NCBI GenBank assembly: GCA_027002825.1
Contig: JALWZG010000053.1
Coordinates: 613-60,029, forward strand
DNA from: a candidate division WOR-3 bacterium
GTDB lineage: Bacteria; Hydrothermota; Hydrothermia; LBFQ01
Direction of reading: 5' to 3'
DNA length: 59,417 nucleotides
A program made the translations under genes and the position numbers. How positions within the stretch are numbered: the first letter of the stretch is position 1; every line of letters begins with the position of its first letter. This document shows, piece after piece, positions 24,978-58,721 of this stretch. Below the pieces are notes generated by a model, which was given only the letters and a program-made list of their open reading frames with translations, was not told where the DNA came from and searched no databases.

Positions 24978-25426
24978 TGGATTTCCTGGCGAGGGCCGTC
25001 GCCAGCGGTTTTTTTGTGGGCAGGATACCCATCGCACCCGCAACCTTCGGGAGCGTGTGGGCCGTCCTTCTGGTGATGGCAACGGGGAGCTGGGGGCCGG
25101 CCTACTGGTCGCTTGCGCTACTCCTTTTACCCCTCTCGGTTCTGACCTCCTCTCATGTCTCCGGTTTGCTCCTCGAGAAAGACCCAAAAGAGGTGGTAAT
25201 AGACGAAATAGTCTCACTTTACCTCGCGTACGCCACCTTTCCCCTGACGTGGAAAACCATCATAGCGGGTTTCCTCCTGTTCAGGCTTTACGATGTGATC
25301 AAACCGTTCCCAGCACGAAGACTTGAGAACCTGCCCCACGGCTACGGCATAGTGGCGGACGATCTCGTAGCCGGTGCGTACACATGGTTAACCCTTTACG
25401 TCCTTCTTAGGTTGGGTTTCCTGTAA
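24974..25426 (+). CDS. pgpA: phosphatidylglycerophosphatase A
   Basis: Motifs GRIPIAPATFGS, VIDEIV and YDVIKPFPA are typical of PgpA. Confidence 0.8.
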   Translation: MMDFLARAVASGFFVGRIPIAPATFGSVWAVLLVMATGSWGPAYWSLALLLLPLSVLTSSHVSGLLLEKDPKEVVIDEIVSLYLAYATFPLTWKTIIAGFLLFRLYDVIKPFPARRLENLPHGYGIVADDLVAGAYTWLTLYVLLRLGFL

Positions 25427-25445
25427 GGCTTTAGAATACCCGACC

Positions 25446-25808
25446 ATGCCCTACAGGGTTAAGGTGATAAGGGAATTCTCGGCGGCCCACTTCCTTGAGA
25501 GGTACAAGGGTAGGTCGGAGCCTCTCCACGGCCACAACTACAGGGTGGAGGTCGTTCTGGAGGGAGAGGTAAACGATGAGGGGTACCTCGTTGATTTCCT
25601 TGAGGTCAACTCCTACCTGAAGGAAATACTCCCGGAGCATAGGATGCTCAACGATATACTCGGAGGCGCATCCACCACGGAGAGGCTGGCGAGGTGGATA
25701 TACGAGAGGGTAAAGGAGAGGTTTCCCCAGGTGGTGGAGGTTTGGGTATGGGAAACGGGTAAATTCGCCGCATCCTACACGGAAAGGAAATCCATCACCT
25801 CCTTATAA
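25446..25808 (+). CDS. queD: 6-carboxy-5,6,7,8-tetrahydropterin synthase
   Basis: Motifs FSAAHFL and LHGHNYRVEVVLEG; 120 aa. Confidence 0.85.
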   Translation: MPYRVKVIREFSAAHFLERYKGRSEPLHGHNYRVEVVLEGEVNDEGYLVDFLEVNSYLKEILPEHRMLNDILGGASTTERLARWIYERVKERFPQVVEVWVWETGKFAASYTERKSITSL

Positions 25809-47738: not shown

Positions 47739-48569
47739 ATGAGGCGTGTACTGTTGCCGTTTTTATTGGTGGGCATCCTTTTGGGATGTCGCAAGGACAC
47801 AGGCACGGGGCCGGACGGTGGGGATGGAAACGGTGAGGAGCAGCCGCCCATCACCTACACCTCCGCCGATAGCACCCGGAACTACTTCGGCCTCTCAGGT
47901 GTTTTCGTATACAGGGACAGCACCTACATCTTCAGCTCCTCCTCCTTCACGACGGATACGGTCAAGAGGACCTTTTTGGACACCTCCTTCGTGGACCCCA
48001 AACTCTACGTACCCTTTAAGGATTCGCTCTACGCAAGCGGCAGGGTGAACACGGACACGTTTGAGATAAGGGCGGAGACCCTGTACCTCAACATCAGCAT
48101 ATCCTGGGACACGACCTACATAGGGAGCATAAGGTACCTGTACGGCGTCAGGCCGCTGAGCGTCGGACAGAGCTGGACCCCTGTAAACGTCGGAACGTAC
48201 CCCCTCAGCGGCACAATCGTCCAGCCCGATACCACCAACAACTGCACAACCTACGTGTACTTTGACTCCCTGAAGGTGGACTCCTCCTTTGCCCAGGTCC
48301 TGGCGCAGGTCTCATTCTCAACACCCCTGCAGAATTTCACGGATGTGTTCCAGAACCTCTACAGGGTGCATTCAAGGATATTCATACACACGGTGGGAAC
48401 GGGTAGTGGATGCTACACCCTCCAGCTTTACGCCCTCACCGACGTGATAGACACGACCTATATAAAGGACGGCTACGGAATAGTAGGCTCAACCTCCCTC
48501 AACAGGATAAGCATCCCGCTCCTCATGACGGACTCAACCACAACCCACAGGGTTCTTGTAGGGAGATGA
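47739..48569 (+). CDS. hypothetical lipoprotein
   Basis: Lipobox LLVGILLGCRKD, a Thr/Ser-rich composition, and no recognised domain. Confidence 0.5.
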   Translation: MRRVLLPFLLVGILLGCRKDTGTGPDGGDGNGEEQPPITYTSADSTRNYFGLSGVFVYRDSTYIFSSSSFTTDTVKRTFLDTSFVDPKLYVPFKDSLYASGRVNTDTFEIRAETLYLNISISWDTTYIGSIRYLYGVRPLSVGQSWTPVNVGTYPLSGTIVQPDTTNNCTTYVYFDSLKVDSSFAQVLAQVSFSTPLQNFTDVFQNLYRVHSRIFIHTVGTGSGCYTLQLYALTDVIDTTYIKDGYGIVGSTSLNRISIPLLMTDSTTTHRVLVGR

Positions 48570-48805
48570 AGGAGATCACGCTTGACACCACGGTTGAAGA
48601 GGTGGTCCTGCGCTACCCCGAATCCGTTGACATCTTCTTCAAGTACGGCATACCCGCCATAGCGTGCGGCTCCCCCATATGGGGGACCATCGGCGAGAAC
48701 GCCCAAAAGTACGGGGTTGAGGACGTTGAAGGACTTCTGCGTGAGCTGAACGACCTCGCGAGGAAAAAGGGCGGAGGGTTTGACATAAGGATAAGTGTTG
48801 ACTGA
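48566..48805 (+). CDS. DUF1858-like small protein (hybrid-cluster-protein-associated redox disulfide domain type)
   Basis: MKEITLDTTVEEVVLRYPESVDIFFKYGIPAIACGSP. The ATG overlaps the upstream TGA (ATGA). Confidence 0.6.
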   Translation: MKEITLDTTVEEVVLRYPESVDIFFKYGIPAIACGSPIWGTIGENAQKYGVEDVEGLLRELNDLARKKGGGFDIRISVD

Positions 48806-49259
48806 GGACCTGCTCTGCCTGAAAAGGGTTCTCGTGGGCGAGGGGTTGAAGGTGGCGACGGCTGAGTCCTGTACGGGTGGTGCCCTCGCCCACGCCCTGA
48901 CATCAATACCCGGTTCTTCGGAGTACTTCCTCGGGGGTATCGTGGCGTACTCAACGGACGTGAAAACGGAAATCCTCGGTGTCCGGAAGGAAACGGTTGA
49001 GAGGTACGGCGTATACTCGGAGGAGGTGGTGAGGGAGATGGCCGAAGGCGCGTGCAGGCTAACGGGTGCGGACCTGTGTCTGGCCACCAGCGGTGAGTTC
49101 AACGGTAGGGGTTTCTTCTATTACTGCCTTCTCTGGAGAGGCGTGTACCTATGCGGTAAGGAGTACGTATCCGGTGATAGGGTGGAGATGAAGGAGAGGG
49201 CGGTGGCATTTCTGCTGAGGAGGGTTTTGAAGGTTGTACTCTCGGACGTTCGGCCTTAA
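48795..49259 (+). CDS. CinA C-terminal domain protein (nicotinamide-nucleotide amidohydrolase PncC-like)
   Basis: TAESCTGGALAHALTSIPGSSEYFLGGIVAYS. Confidence 0.8.
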   Translation: MLTEDLLCLKRVLVGEGLKVATAESCTGGALAHALTSIPGSSEYFLGGIVAYSTDVKTEILGVRKETVERYGVYSEEVVREMAEGACRLTGADLCLATSGEFNGRGFFYYCLLWRGVYLCGKEYVSGDRVEMKERAVAFLLRRVLKVVLSDVRP

Positions 49260-49273
49260 AATATCCGTCTCAG

Positions 49274-49345
49274 GCGGGCGTAGCTCAGGGGTAGAGCACC
49301 AGCTTCCCAAGCTGGGGGTCGCGGGTTCGAATCCCGTCGCCCGCT
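49274..49345 (+). tRNA. tRNA-Gly (anticodon CCC)
   Basis: Sequence GCGGGCGTAGCTCAGGGGTAGAGCACCAGCTTCCCAAGCTGG...GGTTCGAATCCCGTCGCCCGCT. No CCA is encoded. Confidence 0.92.
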
Positions 49346-49353
49346 TTTCCGTT

Positions 49354-49785
49354 GTGGTGGTGTTGATAACGGCATGTGGTAGGAAAAAGGAGGAAACCCC
49401 GCAGAAGGCCTGGAAGCTGTACAGGTCATCACGGATACGCTATCTGAAAAAGGTGGCTGACAGGGTGGGGGTGAGGTTTCTCATACTGAGCGCGGAGTAC
49501 GGTCTGGTGGACTCCGAGGAGGTGATAGCTCCTTACGAGAGGGTTATGGACGAGAAGAGGTGTGATGCCCTAATACATCAGATGGTCGAGAAGCTCTCCC
49601 GGCTGGGCGTCAGTAAGGTTGTCTTCTACAGGGGTGGGGCGAGAAAATCCTATTTTCTGTGCCTTCAGCGGGCATGTGGAATTTTAAACCTGCCTTTGGT
49701 GTCGCTCGGCTATGCCAACATGGGCGGCATACGCGAGGTGGAGGAGGTGTTGAAAAGGGCGCATGATACCGTTTTTCGTGGTTGA
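49354..49785 (+). CDS. DUF6884-like protein (unknown function)
   Basis: Pattern LITACGRKKE...AWKLYRSS...FLILSAEYGLVDSEEVIAPYE matches what I recall of DUF6884 (N-terminal C..K, SA.YGL, PY). The ORF-track start (49234) runs through the tRNA. The first in-frame GTG is at 49354, 8 nt after the tRNA. Confidence 0.55.
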   Translation: MVVLITACGRKKEETPQKAWKLYRSSRIRYLKKVADRVGVRFLILSAEYGLVDSEEVIAPYERVMDEKRCDALIHQMVEKLSRLGVSKVVFYRGGARKSYFLCLQRACGILNLPLVSLGYANMGGIREVEEVLKRAHDTVFRG

Positions 49786-50767
49786 CAGAAGGGTCTCCCT
49801 GGAAATACTGAAAGGTCTCTTCCTCAAGCTCCCGGACAAGACCTTCGGACTGATGGGAAACGTCCACGTTTCCAACAGGTTCATAGAGCTCTTCAGGGAC
49901 TTCCCCTACGGGACCGCCCTCAAGTACTGCGATGATATGGGGATAACCCCCGAGGACGCCGACGAGATGATAAGGGACAGGATCGTGAGGTTTGCCGACA
50001 GCGGGGTGTTCCAGCGGAGGAGGTTTTCCTATGAAGAGCTTTTCATCCGCTACGAGCAGATGGGGACGGATTACGGGAGTATTGTGGATTTCATATACGA
50101 CCCGGAAAGGACCCTGGAGAGCGCGGAGGCTGCCATGAGGGCTTACAGGAGGGGAAATTACGGGTTTAAGCTGGTGGGTGTGGCCCAGGGGGTGCGCCTT
50201 GAGGACTACATCAGGAGCTGGGAGAGGTTGAAAAGGATGGGCTACGAGTACATAGCGATAGGTGGTCTGTTAAAGCGTACGGCGAACAGCAACTTCCTCT
50301 CCCTGAGGAATGACAGCGTATACTACATACAGGAGGTGGTCTCAAGGATCAGGGAGAACTTCGGTGAGGGGGAGTGGATATTCCTCTTCGGGGCTTTTTC
50401 ACCGCGGAGGGCTAAACTCCTGAAAAACCTCGGCATATATGGGGCGGATTACAAGGGGTGGCTTTACCACTACGAGGACGATTACTCCTTTGTGCCTGAG
50501 TATTTGAGCGGTTTGGCCGAAAGGTACGGCGTTTCCGAGGAGGACGTCAAGAGGGTGCGACTTCTGGTCGGTGAGTACGCCTCCTACAAGAGGCGGGGCT
50601 ACAGGCTCACGTATTTCAGGTCGGACGACGACCTCAGGAGATCCAAAAAGATAAGGGAGCTGAAGGGGGAGATAGACCGGACCTTGAAAAAGTACGGCTT
50701 AAACCTCCAGTTCTTCAGGTTTATGAGGACGAGGGACAGACTCTACGAGATCCTGAAGGGTGTTTGA
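49763..50767 (+). CDS. TGT-fold (tRNA-guanine transglycosylase / DpdA-like) protein
   Basis: Three motifs match TGT equivalents: FADSGVFQ (TGT DSGGFQ), YIAIGGLL (TGT AIGGLSVGE) and FLFGAFSPRR (TGT LMGVGTP). No Zn-binding Cys cluster is present. The gene overlaps the upstream ORF by 23 nt. Confidence 0.5.
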   Translation: MIPFFVVDRRVSLEILKGLFLKLPDKTFGLMGNVHVSNRFIELFRDFPYGTALKYCDDMGITPEDADEMIRDRIVRFADSGVFQRRRFSYEELFIRYEQMGTDYGSIVDFIYDPERTLESAEAAMRAYRRGNYGFKLVGVAQGVRLEDYIRSWERLKRMGYEYIAIGGLLKRTANSNFLSLRNDSVYYIQEVVSRIRENFGEGEWIFLFGAFSPRRAKLLKNLGIYGADYKGWLYHYEDDYSFVPEYLSGLAERYGVSEEDVKRVRLLVGEYASYKRRGYRLTYFRSDDDLRRSKKIRELKGEIDRTLKKYGLNLQFFRFMRTRDRLYEILKGV

Positions 50768-51638
50768 CACGTTTAGAATTCCCCACTTGAGGGGACACGT
50801 GGTCTACAAAAAGGGCCCCCATCTGGGGGTTGAGGTGGGAGAACGGGTTTTCATCTCGCTTCCGAGGAAAAGGTTGAGGGGTCAGGTTTACGTGGGTGAT
50901 TTCGTTGAGGTGGATGTGGTGGATGACAGACACGTGCGCATAAAGGAGGTGTACGAGAGGAAAAACCTCCTACCCAAACCCAAGGTGGCAAACGTGGATC
51001 TGCTGGTGGCCGTCTTTTCCCTCAGACTACCCAAGCTTGACAACCTCCACCTGGATTCGGTCCTCGCCATATCGGAGAAGTACGGGGTTGACTCCCTCGT
51101 CGTCCTGAACAAGTTGGATCTGGCCGGTGAGGAGGAGTTCTTGAGGTGGAGGTCGGTATACGAGGGTGCGGGGTACAGTGTTATAGGCACAAGTGCCATA
51201 ACCGGGGAGGGGCTTGAACGTCTGAAAGCGGAGATATCCGGTAAGACGGTGGTTTTGGCCGGACCCTCAGGAGCGGGGAAGACAAGCATTATAAGAAAGC
51301 TCGCTCCGGGGGTTAACCTGAAGGTGGGCAGGATAGGGAGGCACGGCAGGGGTAGGCACACCACGACGGACATAACCTTGGTGAAACTTCCCGAGGGTGG
51401 TTATGTGTGCGATACCCCCGGTTTTGCCAAGGTTGAGATCTCCTTTTTCGTCGGTAGGGATGAGCTCCCCAGACTCTACAGGGAGTTTCGCAGGTTCTCC
51501 TGTAGGTTTTCCGACTGCACCCATACGCACGAGCCGGGGTGTGGCGTCCTCGGAAACGTGGGGGAGGAACCGGGAAAGGTCCACCCGGAGAGGTACAGGA
51601 CGTACAGGGTTCTCCTTGAAAAACTACAACGTGTTTGA
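50760..51638 (+). CDS. rsgA: ribosome small-subunit-dependent GTPase A
   Basis: Motifs VLNKLDL, LAGPSGAGKTS, DTPGF and the Zn knuckle CRFSDCTHTHEPGC. The likely leaderless start is TTG 50787. Confidence 0.85.
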   Translation: MFDTFRIPHLRGHVVYKKGPHLGVEVGERVFISLPRKRLRGQVYVGDFVEVDVVDDRHVRIKEVYERKNLLPKPKVANVDLLVAVFSLRLPKLDNLHLDSVLAISEKYGVDSLVVLNKLDLAGEEEFLRWRSVYEGAGYSVIGTSAITGEGLERLKAEISGKTVVLAGPSGAGKTSIIRKLAPGVNLKVGRIGRHGRGRHTTTDITLVKLPEGGYVCDTPGFAKVEISFFVGRDELPRLYREFRRFSCRFSDCTHTHEPGCGVLGNVGEEPGKVHPERYRTYRVLLEKLQRV

Positions 51639-51700: not shown

Positions 51701-53152
51701 ATGGTTTTGGACAGGATAGCCGAAGCCTATGACAGGATGCAGGAGGAGCTCCTGAGGGAGTCCTATCTCCTCGGAGCGGGCATAAAGGAACAACCGGAGT
51801 ACAGGAGGATATACGAATCCTACGGCGACCTCTACTCCATGGAAACAATAACCGCTTTGATAAAGGAGAAGCTCTCCCTCCACGAGGACGCACCGGACGA
51901 GATGTTTGACGTTTACGATAGGGCGATCTTTACGCTGCTCTCCCTCTACCTGAGCAACAGGCTTGTAAAGGACCACGAGGAGATGGACAGGTACGAGATG
52001 GGTGCGGTGGTTGAGGTCAGGGGGAAGAGGTACCCCTACCGGATGCTCCCCCTCATCCTGCAAAAGGAGGAAAAAAGGGAAAGGCGTTCCGAGATATTCC
52101 ACGCCTCCCTTCCGATCGTAAATCGCCTGACGGATATGAAGCTCGGGATCTACAGAAAGGCCTTGAGCGTCGTCCGCCGGGAATTCGGGTATCCCAACCT
52201 GTTGGACTACCATTCGCACGAGAAGAAGGAGGACATAGCATCCTATTCCAAGAAGATGGAGGGATTCCTCTCGGAAACCTACGAGGAGTACCGGGAACTC
52301 GCCGAGAGGTTTTTCTCACTCCTCGGCCTCGGATGGGGGGAGGTTGAGGGCTACGATATACCCTACCTCCTGTCCGGAATCCCGTTCAAGACGCGGATGA
52401 AGGTATCAAGCCTACAGGCCTTGAGGGAAACCCTCAAAAGGGGAGGGATAGACGTTGATGGACTTGGGAATTTGAGGATAGACTCCGAAATAAGGCCTAA
52501 GAAATCTCCGAGGGCCTTCTGCGCACCCGTCAGGATACCGGACGAGATTTACGTGGTCGTGAAACCCTCAGGAAACTTTTCCGACGTCCTCACCCTCTTC
52601 CACGAGATGGGCCACGCCCTGCACTTCGCGTTCACCGATAGGGACCTACCCGTCGTGTTCAAGAGGATGGGCAGGGTTGGGACCTCCGAGGTTTTCTCCT
52701 TCAACCTGCAGTACATAACGGATCAGGTGGAGTGGCTCTCCGTCTTTGTGAGGGATTTGGACGAGGAGTTCCTGCGGTTCAGGAGGTTTGCCTATCTCTT
52801 TTACAGGCGCAGGTACGCCGCAAAGGTGATATACGAGAGCAGAATCCTCGCCGGAGATAGGTGGGAGGAGGAGGGTCCACGGGTTTACGAGGAGGTCCTA
52901 ACAGGTGCCACGGGTGTGCATCACCACCCGGCAAAGTATTTTCTGGACATGGACTGGGGGTTTTACTCCTTGGAGTACTCCCAGGCCTGGGAGGTTGAGG
53001 TGGTCCTGAGGGAGAGGCTGAGGGAGGAGTTCGGAGGTGATTGGTTCTTCAAGCCCGAGGCCTACGAGTTCCTAAAGTCCTTGTGGTCTTACGGCCTGAG
53101 GTACCCACCCTACCGGATATCCACTGGGATTTTGGGCGTTCCCCTCTCCTAA
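51701..53152 (+). CDS. M3-family oligoendopeptidase (PepF-like)
   Basis: Zinc motif HEMGHALH. The start is set at ATG 51701 (MVLDRIAEAY); the ORF-track extension from 51635 is Pro-rich and implausible. Confidence 0.75.
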   Translation: MVLDRIAEAYDRMQEELLRESYLLGAGIKEQPEYRRIYESYGDLYSMETITALIKEKLSLHEDAPDEMFDVYDRAIFTLLSLYLSNRLVKDHEEMDRYEMGAVVEVRGKRYPYRMLPLILQKEEKRERRSEIFHASLPIVNRLTDMKLGIYRKALSVVRREFGYPNLLDYHSHEKKEDIASYSKKMEGFLSETYEEYRELAERFFSLLGLGWGEVEGYDIPYLLSGIPFKTRMKVSSLQALRETLKRGGIDVDGLGNLRIDSEIRPKKSPRAFCAPVRIPDEIYVVVKPSGNFSDVLTLFHEMGHALHFAFTDRDLPVVFKRMGRVGTSEVFSFNLQYITDQVEWLSVFVRDLDEEFLRFRRFAYLFYRRRYAAKVIYESRILAGDRWEEEGPRVYEEVLTGATGVHHHPAKYFLDMDWGFYSLEYSQAWEVEVVLRERLREEFGGDWFFKPEAYEFLKSLWSYGLRYPPYRISTGILGVPLS

Positions 53153-53868
53153 AGCCCATGCCTCTCCGCCCAAAGGCCGCAGAGTATCAGCAGCACCACA
53201 CCTATGAGAAACCTCAAAACCTCCGAGAGGAGCATTACGGAGTTTATGTTCCTGAGTCCCTCCACACCGCTTATTTCGGGCAGGGAATCGGGTGATATGA
53301 AGCGCAGGGGGTCAACCCATCCAAGGACCCAACTTATGAGTGCGAACATGAGGACGGCGAAGAACCACTTTGCCGGCATGTCCTTCGCGACGAAGGCCGC
53401 TATCAGACTGACGTTCAGCATTACGAGGTATTTGGCGTAAAGGACGGCGAGTGAGAGGTGTAAATCCGCCTGTTGGAAAATTCGGGCTATCTCCACCGCC
53501 CTGCCCGAAAGCATGTACTGGAGGATCACGAACGAGCCTAAGAGGAACACGAGAAAATAGCCCGTGGCCTGAATCCAAAGCCATATCCCCTTTGAGAGGA
53601 GGACGTAAACCCTGCTCACGGGTAGTGTGTTTATGAACTCGTAAACCCTCCCCTGCCTGTCAAGGAAATAGGTGGCCATGCCCGCCACCATGCTCCACAC
53701 GAACAGACCGGAGATCGTGAGGAAAACGAACACGATGGCCACATCCCTCCCCCTGTGGGCGTTGTACACCCCCAAACCCATGAGTGAGGAGACTATGAGT
53801 AGGTTGGCGAAAAACCAACCCAAAGAAAGCCTTATCTCCTTGTAGAGAAGGACAGGTAAGTGTTTCAT
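53149..53868 (-). CDS. multi-pass membrane protein (ABC-2-permease-like, tentative)
   Basis: Six hydrophobic segments and no catalytic motif. Confidence 0.45.
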   Translation of the reverse strand: MKHLPVLLYKEIRLSLGWFFANLLIVSSLMGLGVYNAHRGRDVAIVFVFLTISGLFVWSMVAGMATYFLDRQGRVYEFINTLPVSRVYVLLSKGIWLWIQATGYFLVFLLGSFVILQYMLSGRAVEIARIFQQADLHLSLAVLYAKYLVMLNVSLIAAFVAKDMPAKWFFAVLMFALISWVLGWVDPLRFISPDSLPEISGVEGLRNINSVMLLSEVLRFLIGVVLLILCGLWAERHGL

Positions 53869-57812: not shown

Positions 57813-58721
57813 CTACCCCCTTAAAACGTTCCTCCTGATACCCTTCAACCCCGCCCTCATGATCGGCGTTCCCTCAAACCTCTTTCTGAAATCCTCTTCA
57901 TCCATTTTCAGAAAGTCTTCCCGCCCGATCTCGCGGAACCTCTCCTCCTTTTCCCTGAGGTGGGGGTTGGCCAGAGGTGGCGTTTTCTCCGTCCAGGGAC
58001 AGACGTCGTTGCACACATCACATCCGAATATCCAACCGTGAAGGCTGACACCGGGGGGGAAATCCTCTCCTTTGTACTCAACACTCCAGTAGGATATGCA
58101 CCGGTTTGCGTCTACGGTTCTATCGGATAGGATGGCGCCTGTGGGGCACGCCTCAACGCAGGCGTTGCACCTGCCGCACCAGTCGTAAACGAAAGGGGTG
58201 TCGGGCTTTAAAACGAGATCCGTCATAACACCTCCAAGGAGAATTGAAGGACCGAAGCGGGGGTTTACCAGGAGGGAGCTTTTCCCTATCCACCCCAAAC
58301 CGGCCAAAACGGCCAGGGCCTGCTCAAGGACGGGGGCGGAATCGGAGAACACCCTGTACTCCCCGCCTATCTCCTCCTTTGCCCACTTTACAAACCGCCT
58401 GAGGAGTTTTTTGAACACCCTGTGATAGTCGCGTCGGGTCGCGTATCGGGCTATACCGAGGGAGGGGTTGACCCTTTTTCTGCCGTAAGTCATACCCACC
58501 ACCACGGCCGAGGCCGCCCCCGGTAGGAATTTCTCCGGGTTGAGCCTTACGCCAAGCGTCCTCTCAATCCATCCCATATCCGCATGTCTTTTCTCCTCCA
58601 ACCATCTCACGAGCCTCTCCCTCACACGATCCGATGGAAAGCCGCGCAGGGAGGCTATTCCCACAAGATCAAACCCCAGTTCACGGAGGAAACCCTTGAT
58701 CCTCTCCTCTCTGGACGACAT
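57813..58721 (-). CDS. queG: epoxyqueuosine reductase
   Basis: Motifs CGRCNACVEACPTGAI, CISYWSVE and GCDVCNDVCPW. Confidence 0.9.
   Translation of the reverse strand: MSSREERIKGFLRELGFDLVGIASLRGFPSDRVRERLVRWLEEKRHADMGWIERTLGVRLNPEKFLPGAASAVVVGMTYGRKRVNPSLGIARYATRRDYHRVFKKLLRRFVKWAKEEIGGEYRVFSDSAPVLEQALAVLAGLGWIGKSSLLVNPRFGPSILLGGVMTDLVLKPDTPFVYDWCGRCNACVEACPTGAILSDRTVDANRCISYWSVEYKGEDFPPGVSLHGWIFGCDVCNDVCPWTEKTPPLANPHLREKEERFREIGREDFLKMDEEDFRKRFEGTPIMRAGLKGIRRNVLRG

Follow-up and report, generated by a model that had tools for sequence, protein, structure and literature searches.

What do two overlapping genes, one for a small protein with a transglycosylase fold and one for a protein of the DUF6884 family, do directly behind a tRNA gene in a bacterium of candidate division WOR-3? 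The question is raised by a stretch of 59,417 nucleotides of contig JALWZG010000053.1 (the window, 59 kb), in which a tRNA-Gly(CCC) gene is followed by the gene of a 143-aa DUF6884 protein and by that of a 334-aa protein, which we call TGTL, a DpdA-like enzyme with the fold of the tRNA-guanine transglycosylases (TGT). In DNA, 7-deazaguanines are known from the Dpd islands of bacteria and from phages. An earlier reading of the sequence by itself (the original prediction) took the pair for a candidate base-exchange system and held that a minimal TGT-like gene with a DUF partner, lacking the dpdB-K genes, does not match the Dpd system. However, DUF6884 is the domain of DpdC (PMC11888242), and the pair therefore mirrors two of the three Dpd modification proteins, being an analogue of DpdA together with DpdC. 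With moderate confidence, we read it as a modification-only, orphan member of a rare and undescribed clade of Dpd-like systems that would place 7-deazaguanines in DNA.

The AlphaFold2 model of TGTL, based on 34 family members (predicted local distance difference test, pLDDT, 91.6; predicted template-modelling score, pTM, 0.87), is a confident one and shows a barrel of eight strands, to which a helical domain is added at the C-terminus (approximately residues 240-334). Its top Foldseek match in the PDB is the DNA preQ0 (7-cyano-7-deazaguanine) insertase DpdA (7ui4; E 6.8e-11, probability 1.00), after which come dozens of entries of the TGT of Zymomonas mobilis, likewise at probability 1.00, while among viral models the phage TGT/DpdA-like proteins are matched more weakly (E 3e-7 vs 6.8e-11). 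The family profile, when searched against 177,635 PDB sequences, gave a single match, again DpdA. Because the E. coli TGT could be aligned by hhalign over its central 64 columns only, the family was also compared with an alignment of seven plasmid genes annotated as dpdA, resulting in 341 aligned columns with a probability of 99.3% and an E-value of 1.7e-20. Single-sequence phmmer searches of the PDB gave nothing meaningful for either protein of the pair, and PHROGs gave no match to TGTL. In a Pfam scan at E<=1 the only match of TGTL was a weak one to TGT (PF01702; E 0.041, 13.4 bits against a cut-off of 26.3), with none to DUF6610 (PF20314, the DpdA4 family), and thus TGTL is not the ordinary tRNA tgt product, in agreement with the original prediction. 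The family lacks a model in its own right, the precomputed Pfam field being empty for all close homologues of TGTL. PADLOC's DpdA also matches TGTL only locally (E 3e-11, residues 111-174).

Enzymes of the TGT superfamily carry their general acid/base aspartate within a motif D-[SC]-G-x-F (DpdA Asp95, Z. mobilis TGT Asp102) and use a second aspartate as nucleophile (Asp256 and Asp280, respectively). TGTL has D79, invariant in the 34 sequences, within FADSGVF, where it pairs with DpdA Asp95 (GDCGAF), and F83 is aligned with DpdA Phe99. D109, Q142 and G167-G168-L169, all invariant in the family, are aligned with Asp130, with His181 (a Gln in TGTs) and with the GGM of DpdA, whose residue roles and numbering we take from the literature (PMC10164549). 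The invariant D229, which belongs to the motif DYKGW, is the last part of a predicted strand (227-230) and lies 19 residues past G210, just as Asp256 of DpdA lies 19 residues past G237, and the stretches LGI-YGA-D and FGV-TSI-D are in register around these two aspartates. A zinc motif CxCxxC...H (C368, C370, C373, H395) is invariant in the DpdA alignment and missing from TGTL, as is any PUA or other tRNA-binding C-terminal extension. On account of the fold, the aligned residues and the missing zinc motif, we assign TGTL to the TGT superfamily as an enzyme with an intact predicted base-exchange site, nearest to DpdA, yet outside every defined DpdA or TGT family. Fold, catalytic motifs and the two missing elements had all been foreseen, and each of the motifs quoted in the original prediction (ITACGRKK, LYRSS, ILSAEYGLV and APYE in the first protein, FADSGVFQ, YIAIGGLL and FLFGAFSP in the second) is present in the translations.

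The assignment of the first protein to DUF6884 was likewise borne out (PF21818; E 1.9e-14, 54.4 bits against a cut-off of 30). In PADLOC it matches PDC-M57A (1.9e-12) as well as DpdC (2.2e-7, residues 11-76). Residues C8, K12, A19, Y23, I44, S46, G50, Y61, Y100 and G124 are invariant in 29 DUF6884 proteins that accompany TGTL, so that both CxxxK and I44-L-S46-A-x-x-G50 (LSAxxG) are conserved; these are the motifs given for DUF6884 by the Pfam curators, together with a YaaA-like DNA-binding cleft (PMC11701544). When aligned with the proteins that occupy the DpdC position in real dpd clusters, the TGTL partners gave a probability of 93% and an E-value of 3.4e-7. The AlphaFold2 model of the 143-aa protein (pLDDT 93.4) had no significant fold match in the PDB (best E ~3e-3 and template-modelling score <0.5, to RuvC, phosphofructokinase and, weakly, proteins like uracil-DNA glycosylase), and YaaA was not among its top 50 matches. 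In Dpd systems DpdC converts preQ0-DNA into DNA containing 7-amido-7-deazaguanine (ADG), and does so independently of DpdA and DpdB (PMC10164549).

That the two genes belong together is seen from their company in other genomes. We collected 48 non-redundant loci (numbered L001 onwards), called their open reading frames (ORFs), searched these with hidden Markov models of the families and clustered all neighbours. Flanks permitting and with few exceptions, DUF6884 is adjacent to TGTL, within ~4 kb of it or fused to it in nearly all loci, far more often than expected by chance, which confirms the co-occurrence asked about at the outset. Four arrangements exist: DUF6884 directly upstream of TGTL (the window, L007, L009, L010 and L011); ~4 kb upstream, in the order DUF6884, ~610-aa protein, ~620-aa protein, TGTL; directly downstream; and fused to the C-terminus of TGTL, in proteins of 400-490 aa. 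Of the two intervening proteins, one is a nuclease resembling NurA (Pfam NurA) and the other an ATPase, HerA, that matches Pfam DUF87 and the PADLOC model "HerA, type III coevolved", and HerA is found in 28 of the 48 loci. In five loci the partners are instead a SIR2-ORC/Cdc6 AAA protein and a CARF6-like protein, and in another five, from Archaeoglobus, Thermoplasmata and Heimdallarchaeota (L004, L035, L024, L041 and L046), a large DEAD/Helicase_C protein and a PLD nuclease. Toxin-antitoxin genes lie beside some TGTL loci. A conserved marking module would be expected to have such swappable partners of DNA-acting or defence type, and the same modularity is known from further modification-based defences, the phosphorothioate systems for example.

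A second tie comes from bona fide DpdAs, in which DUF6884 is also found fused to the transglycosylase, N-terminally in two cyanobacterial proteins and C-terminally in one from a haloarchaeon (~residues 794-864 of 968), and therefore the two activities are linked independently of the TGTL family. These fusions stand in the databases as "DpdA" or "queuine tRNA-ribosyltransferase", their DpdC-like half being unannotated. On the cyanobacterial dpd plasmids a second small TGT-like protein (about 294-307 aa) is encoded beside the fusion; it has DSGIF and GGLLK motifs similar to those of TGTL and is matched by the TGTL profile at E 4e-10 and 1.8e-5, weak values from a search of 14 sequences, and may be a bridge between the TGTL family and classical dpd islands.

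Some loci depart from the general picture. In two WOR-3 metagenome-assembled genomes (MAGs; L016 and L017) DUF6884 is missing, and directly upstream of TGTL lies the gene of a 204-aa PrmA/MTS-type (RsmD/PrmA-like) methyltransferase, which may act as another kind of tailoring enzyme or have no connection with TGTL; the same methyltransferase family is also present in a Hydrothermarchaeota locus. In a Methanoregula MAG (L050) a fused TGTL-DUF6884 gene is located downstream of mutS-mutL without a nuclease partner, and this is the only association with repair genes seen among the loci. The HerA beside TGTL (L003, L018 and 26 further loci) matches "HerA, type III coevolved" over its full length (E 4e-81 and 1.4e-83). 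This model and the CARF6-like partner may hint at a link to the signalling of type III CRISPR systems; within 8 kb we noticed no cas genes, with no specific cas search having been made.

The family as a whole is small. A word-indexed search for TGTL relatives gave 75 clusters, and an exhaustive profile search of 1.84 billion representatives gave 122 clusters at E<=1e-30 and 585 at E<=1e-3. With one genome taken per species, TGTL is present in 45 of 185,579 species. The bacterial carriers are Thermotogota, WOR-3, Aquificota, Desulfurobacteriaceae, cyanobacteria, Planctomycetes, Acidobacteria, Dehalococcoidia and Acidimicrobiia, the archaeal ones Thermococcaceae, Archaeoglobus, Methanoperedens, Thermoplasmata, Bathyarchaeia and Heimdallarchaeota, and the closest relatives of the window's copy (52-55% identity) come from MAGs of Thermotogota, WOR-3 and an uncultured bacterium. 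TGTL is thus a rare and patchy family, well separated from both TGT and DpdA. An origin from a DpdA of phage type was considered and dropped, because a pattern/tblastn scan of the 2.9 million viral contigs of IMG/VR gave no TGTL relative.

Within this family, the version of the window is a reduced one. The original prediction was right in its core idea. The minimal pair that it described, lacking nuclease and helicase partners, does exist in the window, but it is not typical of the family, since most relatives have NurA-like/HerA, SIR2-AAA/CARF-like or helicase/PLD partners, and the window's pair is therefore an orphan form. The 59 kb of the window contain no homologue of HerA, NurA-like, SIR2(-ORC), CARF6, DpdB, DpdD or DpdK proteins; the predicted lack of dpdB-K genes accordingly holds for DpdB, DpdD and DpdK by BLASTP, dpdE-J not having been among the queries. 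In a rough neighbour-joining tree of the barrel domain (the gene contexts of L019 and L020 being truncated) the window, L007, L009, L010 and L011 make up a single clade inside the NurA-HerA-linked forms of Aquificota, Desulfurobacteriaceae and Thermococcaceae, and each of these two-gene loci has different housekeeping neighbours. The ratio of non-synonymous to synonymous substitution rates (dN/dS) between L007 and L010 is 0.08 for TGTL and 0.15 for DUF6884, values that are approximate with dS >1. Because of this purifying selection and because all catalytic residues are kept, the pair of the window appears to be a maintained, functional, partner-less module.

The tRNA gene is another matter. 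The original prediction had suggested a tRNA-linked cassette, possibly acquired at the tRNA, and this part did not survive: the 3' end of the tRNA has no att-like repeat between 48.8 and 53.5 kb, GC content is flat over the region (0.53-0.58), the flanks are housekeeping genes on the strand of the pair, and no tRNA lies within 8 kb of the four other two-gene loci. The adjacency is incidental.

How the marking would proceed can be proposed by analogy with Dpd, from which we infer that the substrate is DNA, that the base is preQ0 or ADG, and what the module is for. The sequences themselves show the fold, the conserved residues, the linkage and fusion of the genes, the partner modules, purifying selection and the lack of partners in the window. 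TGTL would flip a guanine out of double-stranded DNA, and a free 7-deazaguanine, most likely preQ0 from the queuosine pathway of the host, would replace it while held by D109, Q142 and the backbone of GGL. The DUF6884 protein would then flip the inserted base out in turn, and its putative Cys8/Lys12 site would hydrate the nitrile to the amide, giving dADG in the manner of DpdC. In most relatives, the pair is coupled to a set of nuclease and ATPase, presumably as a defence similar to restriction-modification, and in the clade of the window the nuclease partners would have been lost, with the marking pair surviving in a housekeeping operon (pncC-like, tRNA-Gly, pair, rsgA). As to the supply of the base, the original prediction had both queD and queG in the window. 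QueG is there, at 248.8 bits against a cut-off of 200, whereas the QueD-like protein, at 77.3 bits, falls below the QueD equivalog cut-off of 89.25; its gene, at 25.4 kb, is the only preQ0-pathway gene found in the window. Since QueC, QueE and FolE are not encoded there (nor are QueA and TGT), the production of preQ0 by this organism is argued from QueG and the QueD-like gene.

Several observations weigh against reading the pair as a Dpd-like DNA marking module. The chemistry of the family is, as said, a prediction by comparison. TGTL falls below both the DpdA and the TGT curated cut-offs, the NCBIfam DpdA model (NF041059) giving 39.2 bits where 200 are needed, and in residues 115-175 only. 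Unlike DpdA it has no Cys/His cluster of zinc type but a single, non-conserved Cys and a helical C-terminus. The hhalign path has a gap just before D229, and the pairing with Asp256 is thus argued from register and spacing. On the side of the partner, the alignment with DpdC spans just 54 core columns, and the DUF6884 protein has half the length of DpdC, which is about 280-310 aa with its C-terminal region. The DpdA of Salmonella needs DpdB (PMC10164549), and neither the window nor the 48 loci gave a BLASTP match to five DpdB/DndB sequences. QueD is present in 78% of dpd islands (PMC11888242), and none of the 48 loci has a gene of preQ0 synthesis beside it, which makes preQ0 less certain as the incoming base. 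Partners like SIR2 and CARF-like proteins are usual in abortive infection, where self-marking is not required. Finally, the window spans 59 kb, and nuclease partners as well as a canonical tgt could be elsewhere in the genome.

Four alternatives can be set beside this reading, ranked here from the least improbable downwards, and each of them explains the combination of DpdA/DpdC-type pairing, DNA-type partners and orphan persistence less well. It is unlikely, if still worth consideration, that the pair attacks or senses foreign DNA and marks nothing of its own. TGTL would then be a glycosylase or base-exchanger directed at incoming DNA, for example phage DNA that carries 7-deazaguanines, and DUF6884 would recognise the flipped-out or abasic site. 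NurA/HerA would process the lesions or covalent complexes that result, or these would trigger SIR2 or PLD effectors, and in the window a remnant would be left, or an anti-modification enzyme that works by itself. SIR2-AAA, CARF-like and "HerA, type III coevolved" proteins do usually belong to systems without self-marking, preQ0 genes are not linked, and YfjM, a DUF6884 member, was recovered in pull-downs with DNA that contained abasic or RNA-base lesions (PMC11701544). However, a sensor without effectors would hardly persist under purifying selection in five diverged genomes, every residue that would bind a guanine-type base for re-insertion is retained, and the pairing and fusion of DUF6884 with DpdA also occur in true Dpd modification modules. 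An action on tRNA or rRNA, in which the two proteins would be a minimal base-exchange enzyme and a tailoring enzyme working in translation, we regard as improbable. The fold is after all that of a tRNA-modifying enzyme, the genes of the window lie between a tRNA and rsgA (a ribosome-biogenesis GTPase), and in L016 and L017 an RsmD/PrmA-like methyltransferase takes the place of DUF6884; but TGTL is closer to DpdA than to TGT, it has no tRNA-binding extension, its recurrent partners (NurA, HerA, PLD, helicases) act on DNA, neither the tRNA nor rsgA is a conserved neighbour, and the family is very rare and patchy.

We have stronger doubts about a repair module, mainly of thermophiles, that would replace or excise damaged guanines and leave end resection to NurA/HerA. 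Many carriers are indeed thermophilic, NurA-HerA is the end-resection machinery of archaea, the fused gene of L050 follows mutS-mutL, and a role of DUF6884 in DNA repair has been proposed (PMC11701544). Nevertheless, the sporadic distribution, which includes mesophilic cyanobacteria, Planctomycetes and Acidobacteria, and the exchange of partners (SIR2, CARF-like, PLD) with toxin-antitoxin genes nearby are the signature of a defence island rather than of core repair. Least probable by far is a conjugation of nucleobase to protein as by Cap10, the TGT-family enzyme that acts on a deazaguanylated protein in the type IV cyclic-oligonucleotide-based anti-phage signalling system (CBASS), which sets a precedent for TGT-family enzymes acting on proteins in defence (bioRxiv 10.1101/2025.04.06.647259). 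BLASTP found no QueC-like (Cap9) gene in the window or the related loci, no CD-NTase is among the annotated flanks or the recurrent neighbour families (no direct search for CD-NTases having been made), the TGTL matches in PADLOC are to DpdA only, and the partner is a DUF6884 protein of DNA-binding type.

If the pair is indeed a DNA marking module, a broader proposal can be made, although we offer it tentatively: TGTL and DUF6884 may be the core of a new, mostly archaeal and thermophilic family of DNA base-exchange systems, in which a mark (a 7-deazaguanine or another non-canonical purine) would be written without zinc, DpdB or linked que genes and read by interchangeable effectors (NurA/HerA, SIR2-AAA with CARF-like, or helicase-PLD). 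The two-gene clade would then be a chromosomal orphan writer, providing thermophilic bacteria with a constitutive 7-deazaguanine epigenome. To our knowledge, all characterised writers of 7-deazaguanine in DNA are zinc-containing DpdAs, those of bacteria depending on DpdB and the remainder coming from viruses. The family would provide the first cellular Dpd-like systems known from hyperthermophiles, among them Thermococcus and Archaeoglobus, with a minimal zinc-less cellular writer and a minimal DpdC-like finisher spread horizontally in archaea and deep-branching bacteria, and with nuclease modules not previously connected to base-exchange chemistry. Cultured, tractable carriers exist (Thermococcus barossii, T. 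thermotolerans and Thermococcus sp. GR6), and thermostable enzymes of the family might serve to exchange bases in DNA site-specifically. With the orphan form comes the question of what a cell gains from a 7-deazaguanine mark that no restriction accompanies.

The layout of the locus (Table 1) agrees with the original prediction in outline. The tRNA-Gly(CCC) was confirmed by ARAGORN, but it begins one position before the predicted 49274, and the gap to the DUF6884 start is of 7 nt and not 8. The 23-nt overlap and the 334-aa length of TGTL stand, while the first ORF, given as ~144 aa, has 143 aa from GTG 49354. The mechanically called ORF (49234-49785, 183 aa) reads through the tRNA, and since the 27 closest DUF6884 homologues begin M-x-V-L-[LIV]-x-T-A-C-G, this GTG is the credible start. 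TGTL begins with MIPFFV, an N-terminus common to all its homologues. The overlap, which in relatives is of 4 nt, suggests translational coupling of the two genes. The tRNA gene is itself wedged between coding sequences of one strand, the stop of the PncC-domain gene being 13 nt before it, and scans for promoter and terminator consensus around the pair did no better than shuffled sequences; the tRNA is probably co-transcribed with its neighbours and processed from a polycistronic transcript. Two further proteins of the window, one of 276 aa with a lipoprotein-like N-terminus and one of 239 aa, have no NCBIfam match at E<=1e-5.

Table 1. Features of the window (positions in the whole stretch) and of related loci (positions after the locus number)
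Feature	Position	Strand	Remark
tRNA-Gly(CCC)	49273-49346	+	ARAGORN; neighbour, outside the module
DUF6884 (DpdC-like) gene, 143 aa	49354..49785	+	Pfam PF21818 match
Putative active-site Cys8 of the DUF6884 protein	49375-49377	+	CxxxK motif
Lys12 of the DUF6884 protein	49387-49389	+	CxxxK motif; ILSAEYG (LSAxxG) further along
TGTL gene (TGT-fold, DpdA-like transglycosylase), 334 aa	49763..50767	+	ATG start
Predicted TGTL D79, general acid/base	49997-49999	+	
Predicted TGTL D109, base recognition	50087-50089	+	
Predicted TGTL Q142, base recognition	50186-50188	+	
Predicted TGTL G167-G168-L169	50261-50269	+	
Predicted TGTL D229, nucleophile	50447-50449	+	
DUF6884/TGTL gene overlap, 23 nt	49763..49785	+	ORF coordinates
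PncC-domain gene	48795-49259	+	Stop 13 nt before the tRNA
RsgA gene	50760-51638	+	Overlaps the TGTL stop
M3-type peptidase gene		+	Flank, same strand as the pair
QueG gene	57813-58721	-	Passes curated cut-off
QueD-like gene	25392-25805		Below QueD cut-off
276-aa protein, lipoprotein-like N-terminus	47739-48569		
239-aa protein	53149-53868	-	
204-aa methyltransferase family	L016:7178-7792, L017:5027-5641, L048:41-652		
DUF6884-DpdA fusions	L056:1074-3149, L058:753-2849, L057:5764-8670		Plasmids NZ_CP014001, NC_019762, NZ_CP119991
Second small TGT-like protein beside DpdA fusion	L058:2922-3806, L056:6159-7082		Cyanobacterial dpd plasmids
HerA, full-length type III coevolved match	L003:6109-7977, L018:6205-8004		
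Fused TGTL-DUF6884 gene	L050:1053-5527		Methanoregula MAG

Compared with known systems, TGTL shares its fold and the catalytic layout (Asp/Asp/Gln/GGL/Asp) with bacterial TGT and archaeal ArcTGT, from which it differs by its sub-cut-off scores, the missing zinc site and C-terminal tRNA-binding domains, its rare and patchy distribution and its DNA-type partners. The DpdA1-DpdA4 of phages and other viruses, which with bDpdA make up the known DpdA subfamilies (PMC6884629, PMC10516641), are also stand-alone DNA transglycosylases that work without DpdB, and the structural matches of TGTL include TGT-like proteins of Vibrio phage nt-1 and Cellulophaga phage phiST; these matches are weaker than those to bacterial DpdA, however, and there is no match to DUF6610, to PHROGs or to viral contigs, so that TGTL fits neither bDpdA nor any of DpdA1-4. 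Another relative in design is BREX-related capture (BRC), a predicted defence system that likewise combines a TGT-family protein with a HerA/FtsK translocase and for which 7-deazaguanine marking of DNA was proposed, but which has PglZ, DUF6079, STAND NTPase, DUF4007 and GNAT proteins and explicitly no DpdC homologue (PMC12839542), whereas the TGTL family has DUF6884 and a NurA-like nuclease and none of the other BRC components. This component set rules out that the two are the same system, and in the full-text literature we found no description of a TGT-like/DUF6884 module with NurA/HerA. From the bacterial Dpd system of Salmonella Montevideo (DpdA/DpdB/DpdC, 7ui4; PMC10164549) the family differs in that TGTL has 334 aa instead of about 416, no CxCxxC...H and a Gln in place of His181, that no DpdB (the ParB/DGQHR ATPase), DpdD, DpdK or que genes are linked to it (DpdD, DpdK, QueC, QueD, QueE and FolE were not found by BLASTP in the 48 related loci), and that its commonest partner, NurA-like with HerA, is foreign to Dpd. 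Nonetheless, TGTL keeps the barrel and counterparts of Asp95, Phe99, Asp130 and Asp256, its partner has the DpdC domain with CxxxK and LSAxxG, the two activities are fused in some bona fide DpdAs, and the helicases and PLD-type nucleases of its relatives are reminiscent of DpdE, DpdJ and DpdK.

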